DNA of 64,000 nt from an uncultured Candidatus Saccharibacteria bacterium (GCA_964638585.1 CAZXAN010000004.1:708-64707); one strand, 5' to 3'; counted from the first letter of the stretch, positions 18,647 through 53,143 are shown. Notes: generated from the sequence alone by a model not told the origin. Numbers and translations are program-made.

Positions 18647-19978
18647 ATGAATACTTTTTATGAAAAAAGAATCAATGGGGGGTATGTTTTGCTTCTTTCT
18701 CTTGTATTCTTGGGCGTCTTCTCTGTCGCAGCAACAGCATATTTGAGTTTGGTTACCACATCTGCACGGAGTGCACGGTATGACGTCGCGAGCGCAGGAG
18801 CTCTAGCACTTGCCGAAGCGGGAATGGACAAGGCCATATATCAGTTAAACCAAAACTCTTCATACTCTGGCGAATCCAACACTTCTCTTGGTGACGGAGT
18901 GTTTACTGTTGCTGTCTCAAACGTAGACTCACAAACGAAGATGATCACCTCAACAGGTTATGTGCCGAATAGCCAGACTCCAACCGCAACAAAAATAATA
19001 AAAGCCAAGGTCGGCATCGACAGCTCTACGGTCTCATTTAACTACGGGATTCAGTCTGGCAATGGTGGATTCTCTATGGAGAACAGTTCAAAGGTAGTTG
19101 GTAACGTGTTCTCTAGTGGTTCTGTTACCGGCACTGGTGCGAACTATATTTATGGAGACGTGGTTTCTTCTGGCGCAAGCGGGCTTGTGTATGGCATACA
19201 CGCCACAAGCTCTGTCTATGCTCACACAATAGGGAAGACTGGCGTAACAACGATTGTAGATAAAAATGCTTACTACGTTACGAAAGTGAACACGACCGTA
19301 ACTGGCACATCGTATCCGAATAGTCCGGACCAAGAATCTGTTGATCTGCCAATTTCTGACGAACAAATTGGCGAGTGGGAGGCTCTGGCGGCTGCGGGAG
19401 GGACATCTACTGCATGCTCCGGCGGTTTATACAGCATCTCTTCTGGCAGTGTAACTCTCGGCCCGATAAAAATTCCTTGCGATCTAACCATCAGCAACAG
19501 CGCTGTTGTGACAATAGCCGGTCATATATGGGTTACCGGCAATATTATCGTTCAAAATTCTGCGATAGTAAAAATGGCTCCGAGCTTGGGTGCACAAAAT
19601 GTCGCTATCATCGCGGACAATCCTTCTAACAGACTCACGAGCAGTACTATAAAGATTAAGAATACTGCGACATTCCAGAATTCAGGCACTCCGGGCTCAT
19701 TTGTGTTCTTAATTTCTCAAAATAACAGCGCCGAAACCGGCGGTGACGAAGAAGCGTTTGAATTAAGCAACAGCGCCTCTGCTCTTGTTGCATATGCGGC
19801 TCATGGATTAATACCAATCTCAAACTCCGTATCTCTAAAAGAGGTAACTGCATACAAAATAAAGCTAAAAAACTCGGCAAGTGTCATATATGACTCTGGT
19901 CTGCCGAACGCAGTTTTCCAGTCAGGCCCTGGAGCTAGCTGGGTATTTGTTCCTGGCACTTATTCAATAGCAAGATAG
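18647..19978 (+). CDS. PilX-like minor pilin / pilus assembly protein
   Basis: N-terminal TM helix plus PilX_N-like segment (ATAYLSLVTTSARSARYDVASAGALALAEAGMDKAIYQL); long Ser/Thr-rich extracellular region. Confidence 0.55.
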   Translation: MNTFYEKRINGGYVLLLSLVFLGVFSVAATAYLSLVTTSARSARYDVASAGALALAEAGMDKAIYQLNQNSSYSGESNTSLGDGVFTVAVSNVDSQTKMITSTGYVPNSQTPTATKIIKAKVGIDSSTVSFNYGIQSGNGGFSMENSSKVVGNVFSSGSVTGTGANYIYGDVVSSGASGLVYGIHATSSVYAHTIGKTGVTTIVDKNAYYVTKVNTTVTGTSYPNSPDQESVDLPISDEQIGEWEALAAAGGTSTACSGGLYSISSGSVTLGPIKIPCDLTISNSAVVTIAGHIWVTGNIIVQNSAIVKMAPSLGAQNVAIIADNPSNRLTSSTIKIKNTATFQNSGTPGSFVFLISQNNSAETGGDEEAFELSNSASALVAYAAHGLIPISNSVSLKEVTAYKIKLKNSASVIYDSGLPNAVFQSGPGASWVFVPGTYSIAR

Positions 19979-21881: not shown

Positions 21882-22219
21882 AGGTCCTTATCCTCAAACT
21901 TGCGCGGGATGAGGTGCATATGTACGTGAGGAACGTCCTTTCCAATTACTGAAATCTGTATGTAGTCGGCGCCAGTTTTATCCTTCAACTCCTTTGCAAT
22001 TTTACGTGCAACTTTAAATAGATCATTAGCAATATCGTCTGGCAACTCCCAGAACCACTGGTAATGGTCTCTAGGTACGACGAGCGTGTGCCCGGGCCGC
22101 ACGGGCTTATAGTCAGGGAACGAAACTATTCTGCCGTCTTCATGATGTGCCTTCTCGCTCGGAATTTCACCCGCAATAATTTTGCAAAAAATGCAGTTTT
22201 CCATCCATTCAGTATACAA
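21878..22219 (-). CDS. HIT-family (histidine triad) hydrolase
   Basis: HTLVVPRDH ... HVHMHLIP histidine triad. Confidence 0.8.
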   Translation of the reverse strand: MYTEWMENCIFCKIIAGEIPSEKAHHEDGRIVSFPDYKPVRPGHTLVVPRDHYQWFWELPDDIANDLFKVARKIAKELKDKTGADYIQISVIGKDVPHVHMHLIPRKFEDKDL

Positions 22220-22229
22220 TGTTCAGCAC

Positions 22230-23981
22230 ATGTTTCCGCTCCACGACCCGCTCACTGATTCTCTGCGTAAAGAACTGTCTGCGTATGACGACCTCACTTC
22301 TGCATTACTGGCGCGAAGAGGTGTCGTAACCAGAGCAGATGCTGAGAAATTTCTTAATCCCTCATATGACAATCATCTCTACGACCCGTTCTTAATGACT
22401 GATATGGAGAAAGCTTCGCATAGATTTGCAGACGCAATTTTATCGGGAGAAAAAATTGCAGTGTGGAGCGACTATGACTGCGACGGAATCCCAGGCGCTG
22501 TTCTTATGCACGACTTCTTAAAAAAAGTCGGGGCGAACTTTGAAAATTATATTCCGCACAGGCACAACGAAGGTTACGGCATGAATATTGGTGGGGTAGA
22601 GAGGTTGGCAAATACAGGTGTGAAACTGATAGTGACTGTAGATTCTGGAATCACCGATATCGAATCTGTATCACGAGCAAATGAATTAGGAATTGAAGTT
22701 ATTGTGACAGACCATCATTTGCCTGGAGATAACCTGCCGGAGGCATTCGCAATTCTCAATCCTAATGCCCGACCAGACGAGACATACCCGTTCAAAAGTC
22801 TCTGCGGGAGCGGGGTAGCATGGAAGCTCGTTTGCGCCACGATAACTCTGCTGAGAGAATCGAGCCCTACTTCGCCAAGGCTACGCAGGGCAACTGAGCT
22901 ACCGCTCAGTTGGGAGAAGTGGCTGTTGGACATGGTCGGTCTCGCGACTATCGCCGACATGGTGCCCCTCATAGACGAGAATCGCTTGCTCGCGAAATAC
23001 GGACTCCTCGTGATGCGTAAGTCGCCCCGGATAGGGCTCCAGAAATTGTGCCGGGGCATGCGGGTAGAACAGCGAACAATAACAGAAGATGATGTCGGCT
23101 TTATGATCGCACCGAGAGTGAATGCCGCGAGCCGGATGGGCGAAGCGCGTGATGCATTTACTCTTTTTACAACATCCGATGAAAACGAGGCTGACATGCT
23201 CGCTAAGAAGTTAGAGAAATTAAACAGATCCAGAAAAGCAGAAGCAGGTGCGATAACTCGCGCAGTGCACACACGAATCAAAGAACGCGGAGAATTGAGG
23301 AGCATAATCGCTATCGGCGACCCTGATTGGAAGCCCGCACTTCTGGGTCTTGTTGCCGGAAACATTGCGGACGAATTTGAACGGCCAGTATTCCTCTGGG
23401 GCAGAGAAGGAAATAATAGTCTGAAGGGTTCGTTTAGAAGCGGCGGCTCCACACAAGTAATGGAGCTCATCCGCACTACTGAAAATATGTTCGCGCAATT
23501 CGGCGGCCACGCGGCCGCCGGCGGTTTCACTCTCATAGATACTGAGGTATTTTTTTTAGAAGACCGTCTTGTTGAATCGCATGCAAAGTTAGTTAAAGAA
23601 GATGTAAGTGACGACCTGGCGATGCGTGCTGATGCGGTTGTCGCACCAGAAGAAATCAGCGTCGCATATTTGCGGGATGTGGAGAAGCTCGCCCCTTTTG
23701 GTATGCAGAATCCTAAACCTGTGTTTCTTCTGCGCTCTGCTCTTGTTCAAAACATTTCACGATTCGGCAAAGCAGAAGAGCATTTAAAATTAAAAATCGG
23801 CTCTGAAAATAGCGGTAAAGAAATAGATGCCGTCACTTTTTTTGTAAAAGGCCCCATCGCGCGTGCCGTTACTCAATTAGAAAAAGGTTCTCGCGCCAAC
23901 ATCCTCGCCCACATAGAGCGCGACACCTTCTATCGCACCAACCCCGTCCGCCTGCGACTTTTAGATATTCGGGCAGTATAG
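22230..23981 (+). CDS. recJ: single-stranded-DNA-specific exonuclease RecJ
   Basis: DHH motifs (DYDCDG, VTDHH) and DHHA1 (GGHAAAGG). Alternative start at 22182. Confidence 0.8.
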   Translation: MFPLHDPLTDSLRKELSAYDDLTSALLARRGVVTRADAEKFLNPSYDNHLYDPFLMTDMEKASHRFADAILSGEKIAVWSDYDCDGIPGAVLMHDFLKKVGANFENYIPHRHNEGYGMNIGGVERLANTGVKLIVTVDSGITDIESVSRANELGIEVIVTDHHLPGDNLPEAFAILNPNARPDETYPFKSLCGSGVAWKLVCATITLLRESSPTSPRLRRATELPLSWEKWLLDMVGLATIADMVPLIDENRLLAKYGLLVMRKSPRIGLQKLCRGMRVEQRTITEDDVGFMIAPRVNAASRMGEARDAFTLFTTSDENEADMLAKKLEKLNRSRKAEAGAITRAVHTRIKERGELRSIIAIGDPDWKPALLGLVAGNIADEFERPVFLWGREGNNSLKGSFRSGGSTQVMELIRTTENMFAQFGGHAAAGGFTLIDTEVFFLEDRLVESHAKLVKEDVSDDLAMRADAVVAPEEISVAYLRDVEKLAPFGMQNPKPVFLLRSALVQNISRFGKAEEHLKLKIGSENSGKEIDAVTFFVKGPIARAVTQLEKGSRANILAHIERDTFYRTNPVRLRLLDIRAV

Positions 23982-24029: not shown

Positions 24030-24437
24030 CTAGTTCGCCCTCCCACCGCACATCTCGAGTAAAATGCCGATCAGTTCCGGCGGAGCATCTTCGAATTCCA
24101 ACTCTAGCCTGGCGTTGCCGTTATGTTTCTCAATGCAATCAGATATGAGTTGGACAAAGAAGGCAAACTTGATACGCATTCTATCATCAAGGTTACCGAA
24201 GTAGTTGATGCCCGTTATTCCTTCGTGGGTGAAGACATCTTCATTCCCCGCCCGTATCTCGAAACGCTGCTTCCACCGCCACCCTTTCCGAATCGCAGTA
24301 TATCGAACATCAAGACTTCGACTAAGAATGAGCTCGCCTTGTTCTCTAGCTTCTAAGATCAGAGGCCCGCTGACGACTGTTTCTGTTCTTCTTACTCCAT
24401 TCGCTCCCTTAAGCTTCATATCAGCAAAAAATTCCAT
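24030..24437 (-). CDS. hypothetical protein
   Basis: 135-aa ORF from MEFFADMKLKG; no recognisable family by eye. Confidence 0.4.
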   Translation of the reverse strand: MEFFADMKLKGANGVRRTETVVSGPLILEAREQGELILSRSLDVRYTAIRKGWRWKQRFEIRAGNEDVFTHEGITGINYFGNLDDRMRIKFAFFVQLISDCIEKHNGNARLELEFEDAPPELIGILLEMCGGRAN

Positions 24438-24534
24438 CGTGGCTTTCCTTCCAATAAATACGGGAACACTCCCGTTCTGCCGCCAGAGTACCCCCGCAAA
24501 GCTCGAAGTCAACTCTAGGTGTATAGTAAGCGAG

Positions 24535-24951
24535 ATGAAATTCACTATTCATGCTGATGGGGGGTCGAGAGGGAACCCGGGGCCCGCTGGCTCGGGTGCT
24601 GTCTTGCGCGACGAGCTCGGGAACATCGTCGCTACGGTCTCCGAGTATCTCGGTCGACGCACGAATAATTATGCTGAATACGAGGCTGTTATCCTGGCAC
24701 TTGAAAAGGTACACGAGCTCGCTAAGGGCGAGCTCGGAGATACTGCAGTGATGGTAAAGCTGGACAGCGAACTCGTTGTGAAGCAGATGAACGGTATCTA
24801 CAAAATCAAACACCCTGATATGCGTGCACAAGCCGCACGACTTAAAGAGCTCGCGGCGCCATTCGGTCTCATCAAATTCGCACACGTCCCTCGCGAACAG
24901 AACAGCGACGCCGACGCCCTCGCCAACGAAGCGATGGACCGTGGTGCTTAA
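24535..24951 (+). CDS. rnhA: ribonuclease HI
   Basis: MKFTIHADGGSRGNPGPAG...NNYAEYEA...VKGH-like...REQNSDADALAN: RNase H catalytic DEDD context. Confidence 0.8.
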   Translation: MKFTIHADGGSRGNPGPAGSGAVLRDELGNIVATVSEYLGRRTNNYAEYEAVILALEKVHELAKGELGDTAVMVKLDSELVVKQMNGIYKIKHPDMRAQAARLKELAAPFGLIKFAHVPREQNSDADALANEAMDRGA

Positions 24952-25840: not shown

Positions 25841-26425
25841 ATGGGATTAATGGAAAAGAAGGCACGGAGTGAGCGCAGATGGGGAACGTTTCAAAAAGCA
25901 ATGCTCACGGCCGTTGTGCTCGGTGGTGTCGTGGTTGTCGCTGCGACAATACCTAATGTTGCTCAACTTCTAAAGTATTTCCCCGGCCACAAGAAAGGTG
26001 CAAAGTTTAACTACCAAGCGAAGTCCGCGCTCGGACGACTTGCAACGAAAGGTCTGGTTACTTTTGTTGAGAAAAACGGCAAGCGTTTTGCACGTATAAC
26101 AGAAAAAGGGGAACGTGTACTCCAGATGGAGACAGAGCGAACGGCAATGACGAAAAAGAGACGGTGGGACAGACGCTGGCGTGTTGTAGCATTTGACGTG
26201 CCTGAGAAACGAAAGAATGTACGCACAAGCCTCCGTCGATTTATGAGTGAGTATGGGTTCGCAAGGTTACAAGATAGCGTATGGATTTATCCATATGATT
26301 GCGAAGATCTAATCGCCCTAGCGAAGGCTAACTTCCGTATCGGCTCTGACGTTCTCTATATGATTGTGGAGCGTCTTGAAAATGACAAACATTTACGCTC
26401 CCATTTCTCTCTTCCCGTCGAATAG
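25841..26425 (+). CDS. PaaX-like transcriptional regulator (wHTH + PaaX middle domain), putative
   Basis: wHTH (GRLATKGLVTFVEKNGKRFARITEKGERVL) followed by RRWRVVAFDVPEKRKNVRTSLRRFMSEYGFARLQDSVWIYPYD, resembling the PaaX domain after its wHTH. Confidence 0.45.
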   Translation: MGLMEKKARSERRWGTFQKAMLTAVVLGGVVVVAATIPNVAQLLKYFPGHKKGAKFNYQAKSALGRLATKGLVTFVEKNGKRFARITEKGERVLQMETERTAMTKKRRWDRRWRVVAFDVPEKRKNVRTSLRRFMSEYGFARLQDSVWIYPYDCEDLIALAKANFRIGSDVLYMIVERLENDKHLRSHFSLPVE

Positions 26426-26531: not shown

Positions 26532-28028
26532 ATGGGAATGCTTATTGCCGTCACTTCCGGATTCGCAGGCGGGGTGTTTGCGAGGTCACTACTGTTTGAA
26601 AACTGGTGGCCGGTTTTATTTTTTATTCTGCTCGCGGCGCTGATTGGCGCTTTTGCTTTTTTGAAACCGCGCCTTGCGTACTCGCTTGGCGCGGTTTTCT
26701 GCGTGTGCGTGGCGCTCGGCATGGTGAGGTCGGCTGTTGCTGATACTCCGCTGCCACAAACATTTGTCGCTGACTTGAAACATCGCGTGCAATATGAAGG
26801 AGTTGTTGTGAGTGATCCTGATGTACGCGAAAAGAATCAACGTATTGGGATCGTCGTTGAAAAAGAAGGGGAGAAGGTTGGCGCACTCGCGGTGATGCCT
26901 CTCTCTGCAAATGTGCGCGTCGGCGACCGCGTGCGCGTGTACGGGACACTCTCGCTCCCACAAGCATTCGAGACAGATAACGGTCGCACTTTTCGTTATG
27001 ATAAATATCTGGAGGCACGCGGTATTCGTTTCTTAATTCAATATGGTTCTATTTATAGGACAGAATCTGCTCCATGGTATTCACTCCCTGCCACGCTTGC
27101 GCGTATTAAACACTCATTCTTAGATGGTCTTGCCCGTGCACTGCCGAATCCTGATTCAGCGCTCGCCGGTGGCATCGTCATAGGAGGGAAGGAGGGGTTA
27201 GGCACGGCACTTAAAGAGGCATTCACACGTTCGGGGCTTGTGCAGATCATAGTACTCTCTGGATACAACGTGATGATCGTCGCTGAGTGGGTGATGGCCT
27301 TCTTTGCGCTTCTCGCCCTCCCGCGTCGCCTTCAGTTCTTCGCCGGCGGGGCAGCGCTTCTCCTCTTTGTCGGTATTGCAGGCATATCTGCCACAGCGGT
27401 GCGCGCCGCGATAATGGCAGTGATCGCGCTCTACGCACGCGCGACCGGGCGCTCTTACGCCGCAAGCCGCGCCCTCTTATTTGCTGTTCTGTTGATGCTT
27501 GTGTGGAATCCTCTCTATCTCGTTTTTGATCCGGGCTTCGGCCTCTCGGTAGCCGCGACCGCCGGCATCATCTGGCTGGCTCCAATTATTGAATCTCGTC
27601 TTATGCGACTGTGGCCTTTCTTGAGAAATGTGGTTGCGACTACTCTCGCCGCACAAATTTCAGTTTTACCGTTACTCCTCTACAACATCGGACTTTTCTC
27701 GCTCGTCGCCCTGCCGGCGAATCTCCTCGTCAATCCTGTTGTGCCACTTGCGATGGCGTGGGCAGCCGTAGCGGGCATCGTAGGAATGACCCTTGGGGCT
27801 TTCGTTCCTGTCCTCGCCACCATCGTTGGATATCCTCTCTTTATCATCACGCGCTATTTCATATTTATTGCAGAGAAAAGTTCGGCACTCCCTTTTGCCG
27901 CATTCAATCTCCCGCTATTTTCATTTTGGCTCGTTCTTGTCGCGTATGCAGGATTAATTTATTTAGCGAGGTCAAAACGTTTCTCCACTACAGACCAATT
28001 CAAATTCGCGAAGAAAGCGTCAATGTAG
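26532..28028 (+). CDS. comEC: DNA internalization-related competence protein ComEC/Rec2 (no C-terminal metallo-beta-lactamase domain)
   Basis: Polytopic membrane protein with competence domain (GGIVIGGKEGLG...GLVQIIVLSGYNVMIV); TAGGAG RBS. Confidence 0.8.
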   Translation: MGMLIAVTSGFAGGVFARSLLFENWWPVLFFILLAALIGAFAFLKPRLAYSLGAVFCVCVALGMVRSAVADTPLPQTFVADLKHRVQYEGVVVSDPDVREKNQRIGIVVEKEGEKVGALAVMPLSANVRVGDRVRVYGTLSLPQAFETDNGRTFRYDKYLEARGIRFLIQYGSIYRTESAPWYSLPATLARIKHSFLDGLARALPNPDSALAGGIVIGGKEGLGTALKEAFTRSGLVQIIVLSGYNVMIVAEWVMAFFALLALPRRLQFFAGGAALLLFVGIAGISATAVRAAIMAVIALYARATGRSYAASRALLFAVLLMLVWNPLYLVFDPGFGLSVAATAGIIWLAPIIESRLMRLWPFLRNVVATTLAAQISVLPLLLYNIGLFSLVALPANLLVNPVVPLAMAWAAVAGIVGMTLGAFVPVLATIVGYPLFIITRYFIFIAEKSSALPFAAFNLPLFSFWLVLVAYAGLIYLARSKRFSTTDQFKFAKKASM

Positions 28029-28929: not shown

Positions 28930-29565
28930 ATGGCTATTCTTATCTCTCTTGTAATACTTATCTTATCTGTCATCGCCCATGAAGTAGCGCACGGCTACGC
29001 CGCCAATTCCTTAGGTGATCCTACGGCCCGACTCGCAGGCCGTCTCACTATGAACCCTATCCCACACATAGACCTATTTGGCTCTATCATTCTCCCTGCA
29101 TTATTGGTACTAAGCACGTCGCCGATAATGTTCGGTTGGGCCAAGCCTGTTCCGTATAACCCATACAATCTGCGCAATCGTAGGTGGGGAGAGGTGCTCG
29201 TCGCGCTTGCAGGAGTGGCTACAAACATTCTACTCGCAATCATCTTTGGTCTTATAGTTCGTTACAGTACTGTGCTTGGTCTTGATGCTACAGCGATATC
29301 GGTTGCTGCAACTGTCGCCTTTATAAATCTTTTCTTGGGTCTTTTTAATCTCTTGCCATTCCCTCCATTAGACGGGTTCACAGCTCTTCGTGCTGGGTTA
29401 CCATGGAGTCTCTCTGTTGGATTAAGTCGTTTTGAACACCAAGTTCGCAATATGGGCATATTTTCACTCATCTTATTTCTTATTGTATTTTCTTACGTCT
29501 TCGCCGGTCCTTTTTATAAACTAGTTGTGTGGATGTTCACACTTATAGCCGGAAGCATGGCATAA
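28930..29565 (+). CDS. M50-family (site-2 protease-like) membrane metalloprotease
   Basis: HEVAHG zinc motif in first TM helix; multiple TM segments; 211 aa. Confidence 0.65.
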   Translation: MAILISLVILILSVIAHEVAHGYAANSLGDPTARLAGRLTMNPIPHIDLFGSIILPALLVLSTSPIMFGWAKPVPYNPYNLRNRRWGEVLVALAGVATNILLAIIFGLIVRYSTVLGLDATAISVAATVAFINLFLGLFNLLPFPPLDGFTALRAGLPWSLSVGLSRFEHQVRNMGIFSLILFLIVFSYVFAGPFYKLVVWMFTLIAGSMA

Positions 29566-29868
29566 ATGAAAAGAAGGTGGTTAGCCTCCTTCTCCTTGCG
29601 TTACGGATCACTCTCCTTTCTGATGCGTTAATCCGTTACTTTCATAAGCGACGTGCTAGTGCATTCTAACATGCTGTGCATTCGCCTGGCACGAACATCG
29701 TACTTCGGTAGTCCACAAATACTGCATAGATCTTGACCTTTCCGCTGGAAAAACTTCCCGCGGAAATAATTAACCAGCTTTTTAATCATAACGCCTCCTG
29801 AAATGAGCCTGCTTATACTCTATACCAACAGCGCGGGTCAAGATTAGTTATGCACTCCTGCTATACTG

Positions 29869-30309
29869 TTGGTAATGGAGTATCAGGTACCGCAGTTCAT
29901 TGAGGTAGAGAGCAAGGTTGTTGGGACACTGACCCTGCGACAGTTTATCTACGTTGCCGGCGGGGCAGGGCTTTGTGTTGTCTTCTTTATTTATTTGCCA
30001 ATCGTATTTGCTTTTCTTCTTTCTGCTCCTGTCGCTGGCCTCGCAGTGGCCCTATCTTTTTACAAAGTAAACGGCAAACCATTTATTGAGATGCTTGAAG
30101 CCGCGTTTAATTACTACATAAGAGGCAAACTCTTTCTGTGGAAGCATAAAGACCTTAGTGCGAAAGAGAGAAATACAGCCGCCGCCGCAGCGGCGGCGGC
30201 TGAGGCAACTTCACTAGAATCTCGCGAGACGCCCAAGCTCACGAGAGGAAAACTCTCGGAGTTGGCATGGTCCCTAGATGTCTCTACCGGAGACATACAA
30301 AGAAAGTAA
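29869..30309 (+). CDS. PrgI/VirB3-like small membrane protein of a type IV secretion-like system
   Basis: 146 aa, two adjacent TM helices (QFIYVAGGAGLCVVFFIYLPIVFAFLLSAPVAGLAVALSF) then charged tail with poly-Ala; directly precedes the VirB4-like ATPase, as prgI/virB3 does. Confidence 0.5.
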   Translation: MVMEYQVPQFIEVESKVVGTLTLRQFIYVAGGAGLCVVFFIYLPIVFAFLLSAPVAGLAVALSFYKVNGKPFIEMLEAAFNYYIRGKLFLWKHKDLSAKERNTAAAAAAAAEATSLESRETPKLTRGKLSELAWSLDVSTGDIQRK

Positions 30310-30310
30310 T

Positions 30311-30964
30311 ATGGCTACAAAACCAGCAAGAGCAACTCAACAATTCGTTCCGGTCAAAGAGATCAGGAACGGCACTATCGTACTTAAAGATGGTGGGTAT
30401 CGCGGTATTTTACTTTGTTCGTCTATCAACTTTGGCCTCAAGTCTGCCGACGAACAACACGCTATTACGCTCGGCTTCCAGAACTTTCTCAATACGCTAG
30501 ATTTTTCTATTCAGATTGTGATTAATTCACGCAAGATGGACCTGCGCCCGTACCTCACTCTGCTACAAGATAAAACAACAGAGCAAAAAACTGAACTCAT
30601 GAAGATACAGTTGCGTGAGTATGTTGAGTTCGTACGTTCTTTTGCTGACCAGGCGAACATTATGACAAAATCCTTTTATATAGTTGTTCCATATTCTTCA
30701 CACATGTCTGCGGTGAGTACGCTTAACTTTTTACAGCACTTGCCTGGTAGCAAGTCTGCTAACACATCAGACAAAAATGCACTGGCCAAAACTTCGTTTG
30801 AAGAGGATCGGGCACAGCTTGAACAAAGACTCTCTCTCGTCATCGCCGGCCTCTCTGGCACTGGAGTCCGCGCAGTTGCACTCGGTACCGAAGAGGTAAT
30901 AGAGCTTTTGTACAGGTCATTTAACCCTGGCGAACTAGAGAATCCTATTCGCCTAGATCAATAA
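30311..30964 (+). CDS. VirB4/TraC-like ATPase, N-terminal part (separate ORF)
   Basis: 217-aa ORF ending TAA three nt before the ATG of the ATPase-domain ORF; with the next ORF gives about 825 aa, typical VirB4 length. Confidence 0.5.
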   Translation: MATKPARATQQFVPVKEIRNGTIVLKDGGYRGILLCSSINFGLKSADEQHAITLGFQNFLNTLDFSIQIVINSRKMDLRPYLTLLQDKTTEQKTELMKIQLREYVEFVRSFADQANIMTKSFYIVVPYSSHMSAVSTLNFLQHLPGSKSANTSDKNALAKTSFEEDRAQLEQRLSLVIAGLSGTGVRAVALGTEEVIELLYRSFNPGELENPIRLDQ

Positions 30965-30966
30965 AT

Positions 30967-32793
30967 ATGTCTTTACTTGATTTTATTTCACGAAAAAAAG
31001 ATAAGGAGGAGCCGACTATAGTGCCGGTCTTACCAAGAGATATTTACAAACAAGGCTCTCTAGATCTTGTAGATACTATCGCTCCTACAGCTCTTAAGAT
31101 AGGCTCGCGCGAGATAGAGCTCGGCGAGAAGTTTGCCCGTGCCTTTTACACTATCTCTTATCCTAGATTCTTAACCGACAGTTGGTTCTCGCCTGTCATT
31201 AATCTAGACAAGGTTCTAGACGTCTCTCTATTCATCCACCCTATAGATACTGCACAGGCTCTGCGTGGATTCCAAAAGAAGGTAGCCGAAGTGCAGAGCC
31301 AGATCAACGAACGTGAGGCCAAAGGACTTGTTCGCGACCCACTTCTAGACACTGCTTACCAAGACCTTGAGAGCTTGCGCGACAATCTGCAACAAGCACA
31401 AGAAAAGCTCTTTGACGTTGGTCTATATATCGCATTATATGGCGATTCTAAAGAAGAGATTGATAAGACAGAAGGTGATATCCGTGGGATTCTTGACGCC
31501 AAGCTCGTCTACACCAAGCCAGCCCTCTTCCAACAAGAACAAGGGTTTCGGTCTTGTCTCCCTCTCGGCACTGACGAGCTTCTTGTAAATTCAAAATTAA
31601 ACTCCTCACCCCTATCTTCTATATTCCCGTTTGTTTCTTTTGACTTAACAAGTGACAGAGGAATTCTCTATGGGATAAACAGACACAACTCTTCACTCAT
31701 ACTTTTTGATCGATTTTCACTAGAGAACTACAACTCTGTGGTCTTCGCCAAGTCTGGCTCTGGCAAGAGCTACGCAACAAAGTTAGAGATACTGCGTTCT
31801 CTAATGTTCGGTACAAATGTTATCGTCATTGATCCAGAGCGCGAATACGAACAGCTCGCCGAGTCTACGGGAGGTCGTTCGTTCCACATATCTCTCTCGT
31901 CAGAGCATCACATCAACCCATTTGATCTCCCGCCGGTTAAAGAAGATGAAGACCCTAAGGATATTCTGCGTTCAAACATTATTTCTCTTGTAGGACTATT
32001 CCGCATTATGCTATCTGGCCTTAGCCCAGAAGAAGACGCGATAATTGATCGAGCTATCAGCGAGACTTATGCGCTAAAAGATATCACGGGCGATACAGAC
32101 TTTACCGGCGCAGAGCCTCCTCTCATTTCTGACTTTGAACAAGTGCTTTCTGGTATGGAAGGAAGCGAGTCATTGGTTGAACGACTCTCTAAGTACACGC
32201 GAGGGAGCTGGGCTGGATTCCTCAATCAGCCAACAAATATAGACTTAACTCAGCAATTTGAAGTATTCTCTGTGCGTGATATGGAGGACGAGCTGAAGCC
32301 GGTCGCGATGTATATAATCACTCACTATATCTGGAATGCTGTGCGCCATGAGATGAAAAAACGTTTACTGATTATAGACGAGGCGTGGTGGATGATGAAG
32401 AGCGATGACACTGCGTCCTTCTTATATTCTGTTGCAAAAAGAGGCAGAAAGTATTACTTGGGAGTCTGCACAATTACACAAGACGTTGAAGACTTCTTAA
32501 AGAGCCCATACGGCCGTCCTATCCTTACAAACTCTTCTCTGCAATTATTGTTGAAGCAGTCGCCAACTACAATAGATGTTTTACAAAAAACTTTTAACTT
32601 AACGGATGAGGAAAAATACTTATTGCTGGAGGCCGGAGTAGGAGAGGGGCTCTTCTTTGCGGGACTGAAACACGTAGCGATTAAGGTTATCGCAAGCTAC
32701 ACAGAAGACCAGATAATTACATCTGATCCATCCCAACTCCTCGCGATAAAAGAAGGCAAAGAACGACATGCTGCAGAAGACCAAAAGAAGTGA
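30967..32793 (+). CDS. VirB4/TrbE/PrgJ-like type IV secretion ATPase (ATPase domain)
   Basis: Walker A VVFAKSGSGKSYAT, Walker B LLIIDEAWWMM, downstream conserved VirB4-type motifs. Confidence 0.75.
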   Translation: MSLLDFISRKKDKEEPTIVPVLPRDIYKQGSLDLVDTIAPTALKIGSREIELGEKFARAFYTISYPRFLTDSWFSPVINLDKVLDVSLFIHPIDTAQALRGFQKKVAEVQSQINEREAKGLVRDPLLDTAYQDLESLRDNLQQAQEKLFDVGLYIALYGDSKEEIDKTEGDIRGILDAKLVYTKPALFQQEQGFRSCLPLGTDELLVNSKLNSSPLSSIFPFVSFDLTSDRGILYGINRHNSSLILFDRFSLENYNSVVFAKSGSGKSYATKLEILRSLMFGTNVIVIDPEREYEQLAESTGGRSFHISLSSEHHINPFDLPPVKEDEDPKDILRSNIISLVGLFRIMLSGLSPEEDAIIDRAISETYALKDITGDTDFTGAEPPLISDFEQVLSGMEGSESLVERLSKYTRGSWAGFLNQPTNIDLTQQFEVFSVRDMEDELKPVAMYIITHYIWNAVRHEMKKRLLIIDEAWWMMKSDDTASFLYSVAKRGRKYYLGVCTITQDVEDFLKSPYGRPILTNSSLQLLLKQSPTTIDVLQKTFNLTDEEKYLLLEAGVGEGLFFAGLKHVAIKVIASYTEDQIITSDPSQLLAIKEGKERHAAEDQKK

Positions 32794-32805
32794 CCCGCCA
32801 GAGGT

Positions 32806-33484
32806 GATGACGTGGCCTAAGGCCACGCCAGTCCTCGCGATTGCAGTCGTCTTTGACGCTCTGCGTTTTATGTTTACCTGGTTCGTATTCTTTGGCCCTG
32901 CGTTGGCTGCGCTCTACTGCACGTTAAAAGTCAGCGACTCAATAGGTACGACAGCGGCCGGATTTGTTTGCACGGCTGGTGCTGGCATCGTTGGGATCTT
33001 TGGCGCAGAGATAACAACACCACTTGGCGCAGTAATGGCGATGGTAACTGCGCTCGCTGGCTGGATGGCGATTGGAGTTTATTTGATTAGGAAGAATCCA
33101 CGCATATTCAGAGAAAACGCACTGTGGTTCGGTGGTAGCCTACTACTAAGCGAGGTGCCTTTCGTCAACTCTATACCGGCGTTTACGATCACAATGTTAA
33201 AGATGTACAGCACGCAAATCAGAGTAGAAAAAATCGCATATAAGAAATGGAGCGAGAAAAACTCTGCTATAGATCGACAAGAACGCGATCGCCAAGCCTT
33301 GCAACAATCACAGTCTCTACAGCTTCAGCAAGCCGATCAACAGCAAGCATTAGATAACGAGTGGCAAGGCCATCTGGCTCAACAAGACGAACGAGAAACA
33401 GCTGGTGATGATTTTGGCGGTATGCAATTCAATCAACAAGGTGCAGAAAATGAAAAAGATAACAACAACGATGCAAGGGCCTAA
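32806..33484 (+). CDS. polytopic membrane protein, VirB6/TrbL-like candidate, with Gln-rich C-terminal tail
   Basis: 4-5 predicted TM helices; RBS AGAGGTGA before MTWPKATPV; position after VirB4 as for VirB6-like channel proteins. Confidence 0.4.
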
Positions 33485-34496
33485 TAGGCTGTATAATGGC
33501 AGTATGCGTTCTGGACTTTTTACTGCCATCACTATCGCTCTTCTTCTGCCTGTGGTAGCTGGAGCACAGTCGCTTGAGTCTATGAATAGTTCTCAGCCCT
33601 TTACTGTATCGGTGAGTCCTCAATTCCCAACACCCTTAAGCCAGGCGACTCTATCGTTTCTCTCTAGCTCGCTTGAGCTAAACAATTCAATAGTTACAGT
33701 GTCTGTTGATGGCAAAGAAATATACACTGGTAGCGCGCGCCCTGTCTCTCTCACTCTCGGCAAAACTGGCAGTGTCACAAATGTAACTGTAAAGGTTGTA
33801 ACTAATGGTCAAACATATACCCAGAAAGTCTCTCTACAGCCACAAGACATCTCTCTTGTTGTTGAGCCCGTATCTTCATCGCCCCCTCTCTATCAAGGCA
33901 AGTCGTTTGTACCGCTTGAAGGAGATGTTCGTGTCGTCGCGATGGCGAACATGAAGAGCTCGAACGGCAGGGCGGTTGACCCTTCTCAACTCGCCTATAC
34001 CTGGAAGGTAGACGCTGCCACCCTCGCGAGTGCCTCGGGGATAGGGAAGAAAGCGCTTCTCGTCGCATCTCCTCTGCAATATCGTTCGCGTTCTGTGTCT
34101 GTCTCTGTGATGAGTCAAGACGGCGCTCTTGTTGGTGGAGCAGAGGTTGCTCTAACGGCGCTTGAGCCGTCTATTAGAATCTATGAGAACGACCCGCTTC
34201 TAGGATTGCGTTATGAGAGAGCGATTTCAGGTTCGTTTAATATCCTAGACGCAGAATCTTCTCTATATGCTGCGCCATTCTCCTTGCCGACCACTGGCGG
34301 TGCGCCATTTATCCAGTGGTTCTTAGATGGCAACTCTGTGCAGACCGGAAATTCTATAACTCTGCGCCCTACGGGCTCTGGAGAAGGGACAGCCTCTCTC
34401 TCGCTCACGGCGTCTACAGGAGAGTCGGGCTCGACTAGCGCAATACTCTCACTTATCTTTGGTACCAAACCAAGCTTTAACCTATTTGGCTTATGA
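33450..34496 (+). CDS. secreted beta-rich protein (signal peptide), T4SS-locus associated
   Basis: MKKITTT...LLLPVVAGAQS signal peptide; repetitive Ser/Val-rich Ig-like composition. Confidence 0.45.
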   Translation: MKKITTTMQGPNRLYNGSMRSGLFTAITIALLLPVVAGAQSLESMNSSQPFTVSVSPQFPTPLSQATLSFLSSSLELNNSIVTVSVDGKEIYTGSARPVSLTLGKTGSVTNVTVKVVTNGQTYTQKVSLQPQDISLVVEPVSSSPPLYQGKSFVPLEGDVRVVAMANMKSSNGRAVDPSQLAYTWKVDAATLASASGIGKKALLVASPLQYRSRSVSVSVMSQDGALVGGAEVALTALEPSIRIYENDPLLGLRYERAISGSFNILDAESSLYAAPFSLPTTGGAPFIQWFLDGNSVQTGNSITLRPTGSGEGTASLSLTASTGESGSTSAILSLIFGTKPSFNLFGL

Positions 34497-35155
34497 AAAA
34501 ACTTATATTCTTCTCTGTCTCTGTCCTCTTTCTTGGCTTAGCTACTCATGCATATGCACAAGGGTTCGTAGGGCTCGCACCAGTGCCTGGACTTACAGAC
34601 ATACAGCCAACAGAGGGAGGTCTCGCCGCGTTTTTTAACAATCTATACAAGTTTGCCATCGGGGCCGCCGCTGTTCTGGCTGTCATTATGATTATTTGGG
34701 GCGGATTAGAGATATCAACACAAGACTCTGTTGGCAATCAAAGTGCTGGTAGAGATAAGATACGCAACGCGATTCTCGGTCTCGTCCTCGTCCTCTCTCC
34801 CGTACTCGTTTTCTCTCTTATCAATCCATCTATCTTAAATCTCTCTTTGAATCTACCTCCTATTGATCTAAAAACAGTTCCTGTCGCCACTCCAACTTCT
34901 TGCCCGTCAGGAACGATTGGTACTTATCCTGACTGTAAACCTCCATGTACAGGGAGCCGCAGAACAAATTGTAATCAGCCTCCCGTTTTTAATGATGGTC
35001 CATACCCTTCTGCACAAGCTGGTCGTTGGTGTCATGGAATTGTTCCTGGTGGTGGGAATAACTTCATGTGTTACAAAGAAAAGTCCGTCTGTGAAAACCA
35101 GTATGCAGCAGAAGTAAAAAATAAGACTGCAACTAGTCCGTGCACAACATTTTAA
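34493..35155 (+). CDS. TrbC/VirB2-like pilin candidate with Cys-rich C-terminal extension
   Basis: Signal peptide then two hydrophobic helices (LYKFAIGAAAVLAVIMIIWGG ... IRNAILGLVLVLSPVLVFSLI), the VirB2/TrbC topology; C-terminal 90 aa has 8 Cys. Confidence 0.45.
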   Translation: MKKLIFFSVSVLFLGLATHAYAQGFVGLAPVPGLTDIQPTEGGLAAFFNNLYKFAIGAAAVLAVIMIIWGGLEISTQDSVGNQSAGRDKIRNAILGLVLVLSPVLVFSLINPSILNLSLNLPPIDLKTVPVATPTSCPSGTIGTYPDCKPPCTGSRRTNCNQPPVFNDGPYPSAQAGRWCHGIVPGGGNNFMCYKEKSVCENQYAAEVKNKTATSPCTTF

Positions 35156-35157
35156 AC

Positions 35158-36348
35158 ATGCAACGAAACATTCTTATCGGAGCGGGGGTGGTGGTACTGC
35201 TAGGGATAGCGGTTGTTGGATATTTGGTTTTCTCTAGTCGTCAACCCAGTATTGACGTAGCGCCAGAGGGCACTTCCAGTCTACCAGTGGCAGAACAGGG
35301 AGTTGCTCCTACAACAGGGCAAGCATCTCCTCCAACAGGAGTGCCTATCGCAGTGACGACACGACTTGTGCAGATAACAGTGGGTCCTGTCGTACCTGGC
35401 GAAGTTGTTATAAATATTAAAGCGTCTTCAACGACTCCTGCTGATACTATTGTTAAATACATCAATCGCGAGAGTGGAAATGTCTACACTTATGCCACAA
35501 AGGCTAAAGCGCTGACGCGGACAAGTAACAGAACTCTCCCAGGCATACAGTCAGCAGAGTGGTTACCAGATGCGTCTCTCGCATTTGTGCAGTATCTCTC
35601 TGGCGAGAATTTCTCAACTATTAACACGTATGCTCTACCAGCGATTGGCTTTGGCGGATTCTTTTTATCGCAGAATCTTTCTGATATTGCAGTATCTTCA
35701 ACATCTCTGCTCACGCTCGCTTCTGCTGTAAACGGATCTTCTGCCTCTCTCTTGCGTACAGACGGTACACGCCCCTCGTCTATTTTTACCACACCGCTCT
35801 CTGCCATTCGCATCTCGTTTGCCGGCAAGAATCAATATCTCGTTTTTACTAAGCCCTCAATGACTCTCGCTGGGTACGCGTATCTTGTTGACGGCGCTGG
35901 GGTGTTCACAAAGATTGCAGGGCCACGCAAAGGTCTTTCAGCTCTTGCGAGTCCTCTAGGCAAATGGGTTCTCATTAGCTATGCAGATGGCGGGACAATG
36001 CATCTAGAACTTATTAGTATTGCCACAGGAGAGTCTCTGCCTCTACCTGTCGCAACGATAGCTGACAAGTGCGTGTGGGCTGCAAACGACTCTGCTGTAT
36101 ATTGTGGTATACCGGTTAATCCGTCTGCATCGTTTAACTACCCAGACGATTGGTATCAGGGGGCAGTATCCTTCTCTGACAGGATTTGGAGAATAGACAC
36201 GTCTGGTCGTTATGCTCAGCTTGTGCTGGATTTTTCTAAAGAGACAGAAAAGCCTCTTGATGCATATGCGCTCGCGGTTGACCCATCTAACACTGCTCTC
36301 GTATTTGTAAACAAAAACGACTCTTCTCTTTGGATTTATCAGCTCTAG
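35158..36348 (+). CDS. N-terminally membrane-anchored extracellular protein, T4SS-locus associated
   Basis: One TM helix (ILIGAGVVVLLGIAVVGYLVF) followed by about 370 aa extracytoplasmic region. Confidence 0.45.
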   Translation: MQRNILIGAGVVVLLGIAVVGYLVFSSRQPSIDVAPEGTSSLPVAEQGVAPTTGQASPPTGVPIAVTTRLVQITVGPVVPGEVVINIKASSTTPADTIVKYINRESGNVYTYATKAKALTRTSNRTLPGIQSAEWLPDASLAFVQYLSGENFSTINTYALPAIGFGGFFLSQNLSDIAVSSTSLLTLASAVNGSSASLLRTDGTRPSSIFTTPLSAIRISFAGKNQYLVFTKPSMTLAGYAYLVDGAGVFTKIAGPRKGLSALASPLGKWVLISYADGGTMHLELISIATGESLPLPVATIADKCVWAANDSAVYCGIPVNPSASFNYPDDWYQGAVSFSDRIWRIDTSGRYAQLVLDFSKETEKPLDAYALAVDPSNTALVFVNKNDSSLWIYQL

Positions 36349-36398
36349 TGATGATAAAAAGTAAAACCACCGACCCGTTGTCGAGTCGGCGGTTATCA

Positions 36399-36917
36399 CT
36401 ATCTCCAGAACATCTTAATCGGGAGCTTCTCGCTCGCAAGGATTTGGGCGAGATCAAGAAAGTCGGCATCCAGCATTCGTACACATCCACTGCTCACACG
36501 TTTGCCGATAGAACTGGGAACTGTTGTCCCGTGGATACGCAGAGGTTTGTTCGTCCAACCTTGGGGGAAGGCTAGAAGCATTTTGCCGGCGCCCATCATG
36601 TTACGAGGATCTCCATAGGGAATAATTGCTGGCAATAAAGACCCTTTGTGTTGCTCGGCATATGCATCACGCGATTTTTGCGTCGGATACCACGGAGCTT
36701 GTACTTGTATTTGCGTCACACTGCCTTCTATAGGAAGTTGGAGCTTTATATTTGGGCGAGCAACGGCAACCATATATTTCACTTTAATCTCACCATTCTG
36801 TACGACATAAAGGTGAGGAGGGTTCTCGCCGAACTTAACCTCTATAAAGGTCTCTGCTCTGGCACCCCATGGCGAACAAAAAAGAAAAAGAGCTACAACT
36901 ACCGTAAAAATTTTCAC
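36399..36917 (-). CDS. L,D-transpeptidase (YkuD family)
   Basis: Signal peptide; catalytic HGT...SSGCVRM motif. Confidence 0.75.
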   Translation of the reverse strand: MKIFTVVVALFLFCSPWGARAETFIEVKFGENPPHLYVVQNGEIKVKYMVAVARPNIKLQLPIEGSVTQIQVQAPWYPTQKSRDAYAEQHKGSLLPAIIPYGDPRNMMGAGKMLLAFPQGWTNKPLRIHGTTVPSSIGKRVSSGCVRMLDADFLDLAQILASEKLPIKMFWR

Positions 36918-45645: not shown

Positions 45646-45691
45646 CGCCCGGCAGAAATCACCCGATGATTCTGTCGGGCGATTTCTTTTT
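45646..45691. terminator. bidirectional rho-independent terminator
   Basis: CGCCCGGCAGA-N14-TCTGTCGGGCG hairpin followed by ATTTCTTTTT; lies between convergent genes. Confidence 0.55.
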
Positions 45692-47360
45692 ATCGCGGGA
45701 GGTCGACAGTGTCGGCGACTTCGGAGAGGGAGGTGACGCCGTTTAATGCTTTGATGATGCCGTCCTGCGCCATGGTGAGGTAGCCTTGTTTGGCCGCCAG
45801 TTTTGCAATTTCATTTTCAGGCGGATTGTCTCGTAAGAAGTTGGCGAGCTCGTTGTCCATAAATATTGCTTCGTAGAGACCGATACGGCCGTGATAACCG
45901 GTCTCTTTATCGTTTTCTGGGGCTGGCTCCCAGACAGTTTCAATTTTTTCAGGAATGAGCGATTTATCGGCGAGATTTTCAAATACTTTTTCTATCATTT
46001 TTTTCTCATCTGCAGTGAGAGGGCGCTCTTTTCTCTTATTTGGGTCCAGTCTGCGCAAGAGGCGCTGGGCCATTGAGACTGTAATCGCAGAGCCAAATGA
46101 TTTCGGGTCCGCGCCTAGGTCTGCCAGCCGGGGGAAGGTGCCAGCCGCGTCGTTAGTGTGGAGTGTTGATAGAACGAAGTGACCAGTGAGCGCGGCTTGT
46201 ATGGCAATATTGGCTGTCTCGCCATCGCGGATCTCGCCGACCATGATTATGTCCGGGTCTTGTCGGACGATTGAGCGGAGACCTTCTGCAAATGTATACT
46301 TGTTCCCTTCAACCTGCGTTTGCACGATACCGTCTAGGTGGTATTCAACAGGGTCTTCTATGGTAATCACTTTTATCTCTGGTTTGTGTAGCTCGCGGAG
46401 GAAGGAGTAGAGAGTTGTTGTCTTACCACTACCTGTCGGCCCTGTCGTAAGTAACATGCCGTTCGCCCGACGAATCTCTGTCTCTAGACGCGCAAGAAGC
46501 TTTGGATGAATACCAAGCTCTGTATACGAGACCATTGTTGAACCAGGGTCTAGAATACGCATAACTATTGATTCGCCATAGGCACCGGGGATAAAGGACG
46601 CACGAATCTCTATCTGTATGTCGTTCTTCACAATACTAAAACGACCGTCCTGTGCGCGATTCGTGATATTCAACTTCACACCAGAGAGAAGTTTGATGCG
46701 TGAGTTGAGTTGGTGATACGTTGCTGGATCAAAAAAATAAGAGTCAGCCAAGACGCCGTCAATGCGAAGACGTAGTAAGGACTCATTTTCTCTTGGTTCA
46801 AAATGAACGTCAGAAGCGCGTAGCGCAAACGCCCCTGCAAAAACGATCTCAAGGATATGTGAAATATGATCAAGCCCCTTTTCTGCAGTGGCAGTGTTTA
46901 GCATTTGCTCAAGAGCATCGTGTGTAGCAGTTTCTTTTGTCAGTTTTGCGAGTATTTCAGGTGCAACGGTAAAAATACCAACTCGCGACTTCGTCGCGAG
47001 CGACAGGTCAGCATATCGTGACAACGCCTTGTCCAAGCTTTTCTTAGAGACCAGAAACTCTTTAATCGTGTACCCTAGACCTGTCAATTTTTCATTAAGT
47101 TTAATGTATGCAGGATTATTCGGATTGTGCATTGCAACCGATATGACATGCGCCACTTTTGCATAAGCAACCGCCTCTGCCTCACGCGCCTCTGCCTCTG
47201 GGATAACACGCAGAGCATCGGTGTCTATATCTGTTGAAGACAGATCAACATAGCCTACTCCATATTTATCAGAAAGAATCTGTGCCAAGTCCTCCTCCTC
47301 TCTCTCTCGCACCTCGGCGATCTTACTCGTCTCTTTTGTTGTATCAAATGGCAAATCCAT
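45690..47360 (-). CDS. second PilB/GspE-family secretion ATPase
   Basis: GspE N-domain, Walker A TGPTGSGKTTTLY, Walker B IIMVGEIRD, tetracysteine-less CPR-type PilB. Confidence 0.8.
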   Translation of the reverse strand: MDLPFDTTKETSKIAEVREREEEDLAQILSDKYGVGYVDLSSTDIDTDALRVIPEAEAREAEAVAYAKVAHVISVAMHNPNNPAYIKLNEKLTGLGYTIKEFLVSKKSLDKALSRYADLSLATKSRVGIFTVAPEILAKLTKETATHDALEQMLNTATAEKGLDHISHILEIVFAGAFALRASDVHFEPRENESLLRLRIDGVLADSYFFDPATYHQLNSRIKLLSGVKLNITNRAQDGRFSIVKNDIQIEIRASFIPGAYGESIVMRILDPGSTMVSYTELGIHPKLLARLETEIRRANGMLLTTGPTGSGKTTTLYSFLRELHKPEIKVITIEDPVEYHLDGIVQTQVEGNKYTFAEGLRSIVRQDPDIIMVGEIRDGETANIAIQAALTGHFVLSTLHTNDAAGTFPRLADLGADPKSFGSAITVSMAQRLLRRLDPNKRKERPLTADEKKMIEKVFENLADKSLIPEKIETVWEPAPENDKETGYHGRIGLYEAIFMDNELANFLRDNPPENEIAKLAAKQGYLTMAQDGIIKALNGVTSLSEVADTVDLPR

Positions 47361-53068: not shown

Positions 53069-53142
53069 GCGCCCGTAGCTCAGTCTGGTAGAGCAACGGC
53101 CTTTTAAGCCGCTGGTCGATGGTTCAAATCCATCCGGGCGCA
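53069..53142 (+). tRNA. tRNA-Lys (anticodon TTT)
   Basis: GCGCCCG/CGGGCGC acceptor, D-arm TAGCTCAGTCTGGTAGAGC, anticodon loop CTTTTAA, T-arm GATGG-TTCAAAT-CCATC; no encoded CCA. Confidence 0.85.
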
Positions 53143-53143
53143 C

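Follow-up and report, generated by a model that had tools for sequence, protein, structure and literature searches.

A cluster of seven genes in a 64,000-nt stretch of DNA from an uncultured Candidatus Saccharibacteria bacterium (GCA_964638585.1, CAZXAN010000004.1:708-64707) quite probably encodes a type IV secretion system (T4SS) of the Patescibacteria kind, derived from the MPF-FATA class, with an architecture usual in Kaiserbacteria-like Paceibacteria, and serving host contact and macromolecule transfer. We refer to the whole 64-kb stretch as the window and give all coordinates within it. This kind of system is already known, and its architecture here is a distinct one of the Paceibacteria type. 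The VirB3/VirB4/VirB2 core lies in one tight operon, is under strong purifying selection and has a housekeeping context. The original prediction, which was made from the DNA sequence without database searches, described a minimal, non-conjugative T4SS-like set as found in episymbiotic ultra-small bacteria, and this description agrees with the T4SS of Patescibacteria in the literature (Quinonero-Coronel et al. 2025, PMC12102498; Wang et al. 2023, PMC10633639). The seven co-directional, tightly packed genes that it outlined are all present as open reading frames (ORFs) on the plus strand and are named g1 to g7:

29869/29875-30309, plus strand: g1, PrgI/VirB3-like protein
30311-30964, plus strand: g2, TrsD-like protein, VirB4 N-terminal domain
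30967-32793, plus strand: g3, VirB4 ATPase, middle and C-terminal P-loop part
32768-33484, plus strand: g4, polytopic membrane protein, 238 aa
33405/33504-34496, plus strand: g5, secreted protein with Ig-like beta-sandwich domains
34493-35155, plus strand: g6, VirB2-like T4SS pilin, 220 aa
35158-36348, plus strand: g7, membrane-anchored extracellular beta-propeller, 396 aa

Neighboring genes are either separated by 1 nt (g1/g2) or 2 nt (g2/g3 and g6/g7), or they overlap, by 26 nt at g3/g4 and as ATGA at g5/g6.

The PrgI, VirB4 and pilin core

The product of g1 matches the PrgI family of Pfam (PF12666) above its gathering score (40.7 bits vs 27, E 3.6e-10), consistent with the PrgI-like first gene of the original prediction, and has two transmembrane (TM)-like segments at residues 19-37 and 43-61. 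Its start is likely the ATG at 29875, which gives a protein of 144 aa. In 77 of 80 related loci, which came from a scan of species-representative genomes and have VirB4 proteins of 74-93% identity, g1 lies directly upstream of the TrsD-like gene. Inside prgI, a GC-rich perfect palindrome with a 12-bp stem (30176-30202, CAGCCGCCGCCGCTGCGGCGGCGGCTG) encodes a poly-Ala run (AAAAAAAA) and was flagged as terminator-like on the minus strand by the scan.

A VirB4/TraC-type ATPase encoded as two ORFs had been proposed for g2 and g3, and both profile and alignment matches agree with this assignment. The g2 protein (217 aa) matches the NCBIfam models for Mbov_0397 VirB4 (positions 95-237, E 6e-11), CD1110 VirB4 (positions 1-124, E 2.9e-5) and TrsD (E 1.5e-4), and its homologues bear the TraC-like domain PF26593; it had no significant match in the PDB. 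The g3 protein (608 aa) scored 374 bits against a cut-off of 325 with the CD1110-family VirB4 model NF045971 (model positions 183-733), matched PF19044 in Pfam (E 2.8e-25), and in the PDB profile search matched the solved VirB4 structure 4AG5 (E 3.5e-44) as well as TrwK. The profile searches assigned the ATPase to VirB4, as had been predicted. Its Walker A (GSGKS) and Walker B (IIDEAW) motifs are both intact, with the Walker residues being invariant in the homologue alignment.

In a fused 783-aa VirB4 from a Clostridium perfringens plasmid, the stretch that aligns with g2 is residues 21-87, and that for g3 is residues 205-754, the latter with 33% identity. Since both align to separate parts of this fused protein, we read g2 and g3 together as one VirB4. 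The junction between them reads CAA TAA at ATG, with the two ORFs in different frames and 2 nt apart. All 79 loci having both genes show the TrsD/VirB4 split, with a spacer of 1-6 nt in 65 of them and a frame that varies from locus to locus. Because the split is kept in 79 loci with variable short spacers, these comparisons identify it as a genuine two-gene arrangement and not as a sequencing frameshift.

The 120 best VirB4 homologues are 89-96% identical to g3 and ~605 aa long. Over the range of 74-96% identity, the homologues come from Candidatus Kaiserbacteria, Paceibacterota and Minisyncoccota, where named, and from metagenome-assembled genomes of Patescibacteria; the best plasmid VirB4 is at most 35% identical. 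Comparison of neighborhoods across related genomes, as the original prediction had proposed, showed that the gene order is kept: PrgI-TrsD-VirB4-(g4)-g5-pilin-g7-yidC(-)-rnpA(-)-dnaA-dnaN recurs in the 80 loci wherever the contig reaches. Since the same order recurs in 80 related loci, the arrangement is not due to chance. We also determined median protein identities in three divergence tiers, given here as closest / middle / most distant:

VirB4: 91% / 83% / 75%
DnaA: 85% / 76% / 54%
DnaN: 78% / 57% / 38%
YidC: 77% / 47% / 40%

With the highest median identity in all three tiers, VirB4 is by this measure the most constrained protein of the neighborhood, more strongly so than DnaA.

The pilin gene, g6, starts 1.7 kb downstream of virB4. 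Its product matches PF18895 (T4SS_pilin) with 35.2 bits against a Pfam gathering score of 26.6 (E 1.3e-8), and weakly matches NF045849, the Mbov_0395 pilin-like family (E 0.0017). When the profile of the pilin core was searched against the PDB, VirB2 chains were among the top 3 matches, at non-significant E values of 1.5-2.1. The protein comprises a signal peptide (residues 1-22), a core with two TM helices (residues ~38-125, nt 34604-34867; TM-like segments at residues 54-72 and 92-110), and a C-terminal extension of 95 residues with 8 Cys (residues 126-220, nt 34868-35152). A signal peptide, a two-helix hydrophobic hairpin and a pilin profile match are the features of a VirB2-type pilin, and the PF18895 match together with the TM and signal peptide scan upholds the proposed VirB2 topology with its 8-Cys extension. 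This topology would place the C-terminal domain outside the cell.

The core of the pilin (residues 38-125) matches 9806 representative clusters. Among the 150 best pilin relatives, every pair of cores is similar, with a median identity of 76.5%, whereas the C-terminal extensions range from 19 to 331 aa (median 111 aa) and any detectable similarity is found for 538 of 10878 pairs of tails. Tail identity lies at the noise floor, 24-28%, in every divergence tier. Weak links, followed transitively, connect 103 of 148 tails in a single network, and many of the tails may therefore have a common origin. In 145/150 relatives the tail has an even number of Cys (binomial p 8.6e-37), as expected for a fully disulfide-bonded extracellular domain. 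Taken together, the tail is probably a hypervariable, disulfide-bonded extracellular domain; no description of such a pilin tail was found in the literature searched. We also considered the M50 protease encoded upstream of the locus as a conserved pilin-processing partner, and rejected it because the linkage held only in the closest loci.

Putative envelope proteins g4, g5 and g7 and strain-level replacement

The original prediction described g4 as a polytopic, VirB6/TrbL-like membrane protein starting at 32806. This start misses the reading frame by one base; ATGs in frame lie at 32768 and 32807, and the N-terminus shared by g4 homologues in their alignment (MPxxxxxxPPxVMTW) fits the ATG at 32768. 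The polytopic topology stood, since the AlphaFold2 (AF2) model, which is confident (pLDDT 81.5), has ~4 TM helices followed by a 75-residue C-terminal helix that is Gln/Glu-rich. The likeness to VirB6/TrbL found no support: g4 had no Pfam or NCBIfam match, none of its 52 positional homologues matched TrbL/VirB6, a profile search of the PDB found nothing, and no VirB6/TrbL homology was found by sequence or fold. Since sequence, PDB profile and fold comparisons gave no VirB6 match, the VirB6 label for g4 is one of position and topology only. The protein evolves fast, with 30-54% identity in the 27 closest loci, and two conserved Cys flank a variable, indel-rich loop.

The g5 ORF opens at 33405, and its probable start is the ATG at 33504, which would give the signal peptide MRSGLFTAITIALLLPVVAGA followed by QS; the hydrophobic N-terminal segment spans residues 3-21. 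A profile built from 64 homologues matches the Ig-like domains of phage Hoc in the PDB (E 6.1e-5), and among these homologues 18 match BiPBP_C and 6 a cadherin-like beta-sandwich family (best E 4.8e-7). The gene is found in 72/80 loci, between virB4/g4 and the pilin gene. Profile and signal peptide together identify g5 as a secreted protein of Ig-like beta-sandwich domains, much as the secreted beta-rich protein of the original prediction.

For g7, AF2 and Foldseek turned the proposed membrane-anchored, 396-aa extracellular protein into a more specific one, an anchored beta-propeller, with a TM helix at residues 2-26, a disordered linker at 28-67 and the propeller at 70-396 (pLDDT 76, pTM 0.72). 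Foldseek matched the model to the tricorn, TolB and WD40 propellers of the PDB (E ~1e-7), and the g7 profile matched TolB in the PDB (E 0.01). The pair Cys305/Cys316 is invariant. The gene is found in 62/80 loci; none of 867 homologues has a Pfam domain, and all named ones are called hypothetical. Neither g7 (TM helix plus beta-propeller by model) nor g5 (Ig-like by profile) looks like an NTF2-like protein of the VirB8 kind. Both could be new structural components of a pilus-bearing monoderm T4SS.

Over ~12 kb, two metagenome contigs (L081 and L084) have a DNA identity of 99-100%, and their flanking proteins one of 98-100%. The similarity breaks off in two islands only, namely in g4, whose proteins are ~32-37% identical, and in the pilin tail. 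When haplotypes are written as g4 allele/tail allele, L081, L082, L083, L095 and L096 are A/A, L084 is B/B and L097 is B/A (H3). Two contigs end at the variable islands, L097 inside the pilin tail (end 7344) and L098 at the virB4/g4 boundary (end 6674), as is typical of assembly breaks from co-existing alleles. We considered whether g4 and the pilin tail are a co-varying cognate pair and rejected this, with a Spearman rho of -0.06 within one divergence tier; the pairing is also countered by H3, which joins g4 allele B to tail allele A. Ten contigs sharing the VirB4 protein P0029 were almost clonal and showed no allele replacement. In one of these ten (L085, 10600-11857), g7 is split by an indel into ORFs of 331 and 90 aa, which could reflect a pseudogene in this strain or an error of assembly.

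Flanking genes and missing conjugation parts

The M50 protease, L,D-transpeptidase and ComEC genes that had been proposed to flank the locus all have Pfam matches, and a hairpin lies between the convergent g7 and YkuD genes:

26532-28028: ComEC (Pfam), 2 kb upstream of the locus
28930-29565: M50 protease (Pfam)
36365-36394, no strand assigned: candidate terminator hairpin, 13-bp stem, 13 pairs, 8 G-C (terminator-like scan, pattern match only)
36399-36917, minus strand: YkuD L,D-transpeptidase (Pfam)

The hairpin is likely a terminator that would close the operon. The presence of comEC upstream thus held, but its linkage is lineage-specific: comEC, SOD, L28 and M50 are linked to the locus only in the closest tier, with comEC in the closest 21 of the 80 loci. 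The genes yidC, rnpA, rpmH, dnaA and dnaN lie directly downstream of the locus region, with the start of dnaA 1.9 kb past g7, and because of these genes we place the locus beside the replication origin region (oriC). The locus has the same GC content (0.45-0.48) as its flanks. A scan for sigma-70 promoters around the operon gave fewer sites than in shuffled sequence, and an Rfam scan found tRNAs only.

The relaxase and VirD4 were reported as not visible by the original prediction, and neither was found among the 36 window ORFs that were scanned, namely the 7 of the locus and 29 flanking ones (every ORF outside the locus with 300 aa or more, and 13 smaller ones; ~15 of 157-217 aa lay outside the scan). 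The scanned flanking ORFs encode housekeeping proteins (NusA, RNase Y, RecJ, PolA, RuvB/C, PBP1) and type IV pilus (T4P) proteins. Among the parts of a conjugation module, no relaxase, coupling protein, VirB1-type hydrolase or mobile element was found in the locus or the scanned window ORFs, and the conserved housekeeping context weakens the case for a mobile element.

The T4P genes are scattered in the window. PilB (T2SSE, E 4e-123) and PilC (T2SSF) are encoded at 14707-17704, a second PilB-like ATPase at 45690-47360 on the minus strand, and PilM at 62095-63216. With PilB, PilC and PilM in the window, the genome has genes for T4P alongside those for a T4SS pilin system. An ORF without a Pfam domain (18647-19978, 443 aa) follows shortly after the PilB/PilC genes, and a second large ORF of this sort lies at 57085-58617 on the minus strand (510 aa).

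The YkuD gene between g7 and yidC has no counterpart there in any of the 80 related loci, and looks like a lineage-specific insertion outside the T4SS. Close relatives have an ORF of 86-87 aa with a weak DUF3467 match between the M50 and prgI genes (e.g. L081 8578-8838). Its homologue was not found by tblastn in the corresponding 303-nt gap of the window (29566-29868), which holds only a 53-aa antisense ORF (29628-29789) without a Pfam match. An RNase H/RVT_3 domain protein is encoded just upstream of comEC (24205-24951), and in relatives an RNase H gene is directly 5' of comEC; a protein with a PaaX central Cas2-like domain (PF20803, E 2e-19) is also encoded just upstream of comEC (25841-26425). 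One base after a tRNA-Lys gene (53069-53143) begins an ORF resembling LAGLIDADG-type homing endonucleases (53144-53977, PF14528, E 3.8e-9).

Proposed function and relation to known systems

In the reading that we favor, PrgI would tether the TrsD/VirB4 motor to the membrane, with the TrsD-like protein completing VirB4. VirB4 would then pull the Sec-exported two-helix pilin from the membrane and drive its polymerization into a pilus or tube of the conjugative type. F-type pili expose the C-terminus on their surface, where fusions are tolerated, and since the C-terminus of g6 is likewise predicted to lie outside the cell, its hypervariable, disulfide-bonded tail would coat the filament on the outside, where it could be a host-recognition or antigenic surface seen by hosts or phages. 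The g4, g5 and g7 proteins may be lineage-specific envelope parts in the places of VirB6, VirB8 and adhesins. By analogy with Southlakia, which depends on its T4SS cluster for epibiotic growth (Wang et al. 2023, PMC10633639), we infer a role in host-cell contact and in uptake of host material or effector delivery, and not in plasmid conjugation. Reviews describe the role of the Patescibacteria T4SS as unknown, with import of host macromolecules or effector delivery being suggested (PMC11665869, PMC12857230), and tubular structures that are possibly T4SS pili have been described at the parasite-host interface of another cultivated member (bioRxiv 10.64898/2026.06.21.733656).

Several points weigh against this reading. 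Polymerization of the pilin is presumed, and its tail could be cleaved off instead of being kept; TrbC of RP4 is C-terminally processed. No VirB6, VirB8 or VirB1 homologue was recognized at the locus, so the channel architecture is conjecture. The strain comparison rests on metagenome contigs, and the H3 haplotype (L097) could be an assembly chimera. Transport of DNA is also possible, since only 64 kb are visible and VirD4-like genes lie far from virB4 in most Patescibacteria genomes (PMC12102498).

A more specific version of the favored reading, which we put forward tentatively and hold to be possible but doubtful, is that of a "decorated" pilus of Kaiserbacteria-like Paceibacteria in which every VirB2-like subunit bears, outward on the filament, a hypervariable, disulfide-knotted C-terminal domain. 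The tail and g4 would be swapped by recombination between strains alike in all else, and would set host specificity or let the cell escape pilus-targeting phage; a single gene would thereby stand in for the six-pilin arrays of Saccharibacteria.

The absence of relaxase and coupling protein from the scanned window ORFs would also fit a DNA-uptake machine like the ComB T4SS of H. pylori or the archaeal Ced system, in which the pilus and VirB4 would take in DNA of the host or the environment and ComEC would pass it to the cytoplasm as a nucleotide source. This explanation draws on comEC 2 kb upstream, on RecJ (22182-23981), on published mention of import as a possibility (PMC12102498, PMC11665869) and on ABY1-class T4SS loci sitting with comF, recG and radA (PMC12102498). 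We nevertheless consider it unlikely. The linkage to comEC is confined to the closest 21 of 80 loci, and matches to CedB (32.5 bits vs 700) and CedD (24.5 bits vs 600) cover the P-loop only, far below the cut-offs. Southlakia can do without comEC but not without the T4SS (PMC10633639, PMC12857230), and the PilB, PilC and PilM genes of the window belong to T4P, the usual competence pilus, which confers competence in Saccharibacteria (PMC12857230). That the genome already encodes T4P for adhesion speaks in turn against a pilus for adhesion only, in which the VirB4 machine would build a variable-surfaced attachment filament and translocate nothing; conservation of VirB4 above that of DnaA and the essentiality in Southlakia likewise exceed what is expected for one adhesin among several, and we hold this explanation to be quite unlikely. 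What it would account for is that the conserved parts, VirB3, VirB4 and VirB2, are the ones associated with the building of pili in other T4SSs, that no coupling protein is encoded at the locus, and that a hypervariable exposed tail with strain-level replacement resembles an adhesin or antigen under diversifying selection.

The weakest of the rival explanations, and one that we regard as very improbable, is a remnant or active integrative and conjugative element (ICE) that exports DNA and whose relaxase and coupling protein lie outside the window. VirB4 is of the CD1110 conjugative family, its adjacency to PrgI is as in the Clostridium plasmid with MobC, relaxase and VirD4, and VirD4-like genes are present elsewhere in many Patescibacteria genomes (PMC12102498). 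However, the place of the locus beside yidC/dnaA is fixed across genomes in which DnaN identity falls to 38%, the divergence of VirB4 tracks that of housekeeping proteins and is lower, integrase, relaxase and coupling protein were not found among the scanned ORFs of the 64 kb, GC content equals that of the flanks, and only 109 relaxases have been found in 3035 Patescibacteria genomes (PMC12102498).

The comparative picture may be useful in its own right: VirB4 is conserved above DnaA, and strains that are otherwise nearly identical have had g4 and the pilin tail replaced. Should the tail be exposed on a pilus, its alleles would offer a host-range marker for uncultured Paceibacteria, to be compared with the hosts that occur alongside them in metagenomes. 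Patescibacteria need the T4SS in the single species tested, and the locus described here is an ordinary member of that known kind.

VirB4 is found in 2417 of 3035 Patescibacteria genomes and forms a monophyletic clade nested in MPF-FATA, its gene neighbors being TrsD, PrgI/VirB3, VirB2-like pilins, sometimes VirB6 and almost never relaxases; the T4SS locus of Paceibacteria lies near dnaA, dnaN, rnpA and rpmH (Quinonero-Coronel et al. 2025, PMC12102498). The locus studied here agrees with this clade in VirB4 ancestry, judged from the profile score and the identity of the nearest homologues, and in having a VirB4 of ~605 aa preceded by separate TrsD-like and PrgI/VirB3-like proteins. It further agrees in having a PF18895 pilin in the cluster near virB4, no relaxase or coupling protein nearby among the 36 scanned ORFs, and a chromosomal place near dnaA. 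Compared with the locus of Southlakia epibionticum (SEML1_0006-0019; gene list from Table S2 of Wang et al., PMC10633639), it differs in its accessory parts. Southlakia has six short tandem pilins of 103-185 aa, whereas here there is one pilin with a hypervariable Cys-rich tail; two ~1000-aa proteins, one of them TrbL/VirB6-like, contrast with a 238-aa polytopic protein without a VirB6 signal; and an NTF2-like (VirB8-like) protein and a 300-aa PrgI contrast with an Ig-like secreted protein and an anchored beta-propeller.

As in monoderm MPF-FATA systems of the CD1110/CTn2 type, such as that of the C. perfringens plasmid NZ_CP143494.1, the PrgI gene is immediately upstream of virB4, and VirB4 is 33% identical to that of the plasmid over 554 residues. 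A separate TrsD-type N-domain protein is known from the pGO1 subclass (pGO1/pSK41 type; PMC12102498). The plasmid encodes MobC, a relaxase, VirD4, an SLT/VirB1 hydrolase and a fused 783-aa VirB4, whereas the locus here has none of these DNA-processing and hydrolase genes. No gene of NZ_CP143494.1 is annotated as a pilin (going by the annotation, which includes three hypothetical ORFs), in contrast with the locus here, which encodes a pilin and is not on a mobile element. The pilin itself resembles the VirB2/TraA/TrbC pilins of diderms and the Mbov_0395 family of Mycoplasma ICEs in having two hydrophobic helices that form a hairpin after a signal peptide. Classical VirB2-type pilins are ~70-130 aa long and have no extra domain; unlike the VirB2/TraA/TrbC pilins, g6 carries a C-terminal extension of 95 aa with 8 Cys that is hypervariable while its core is conserved.

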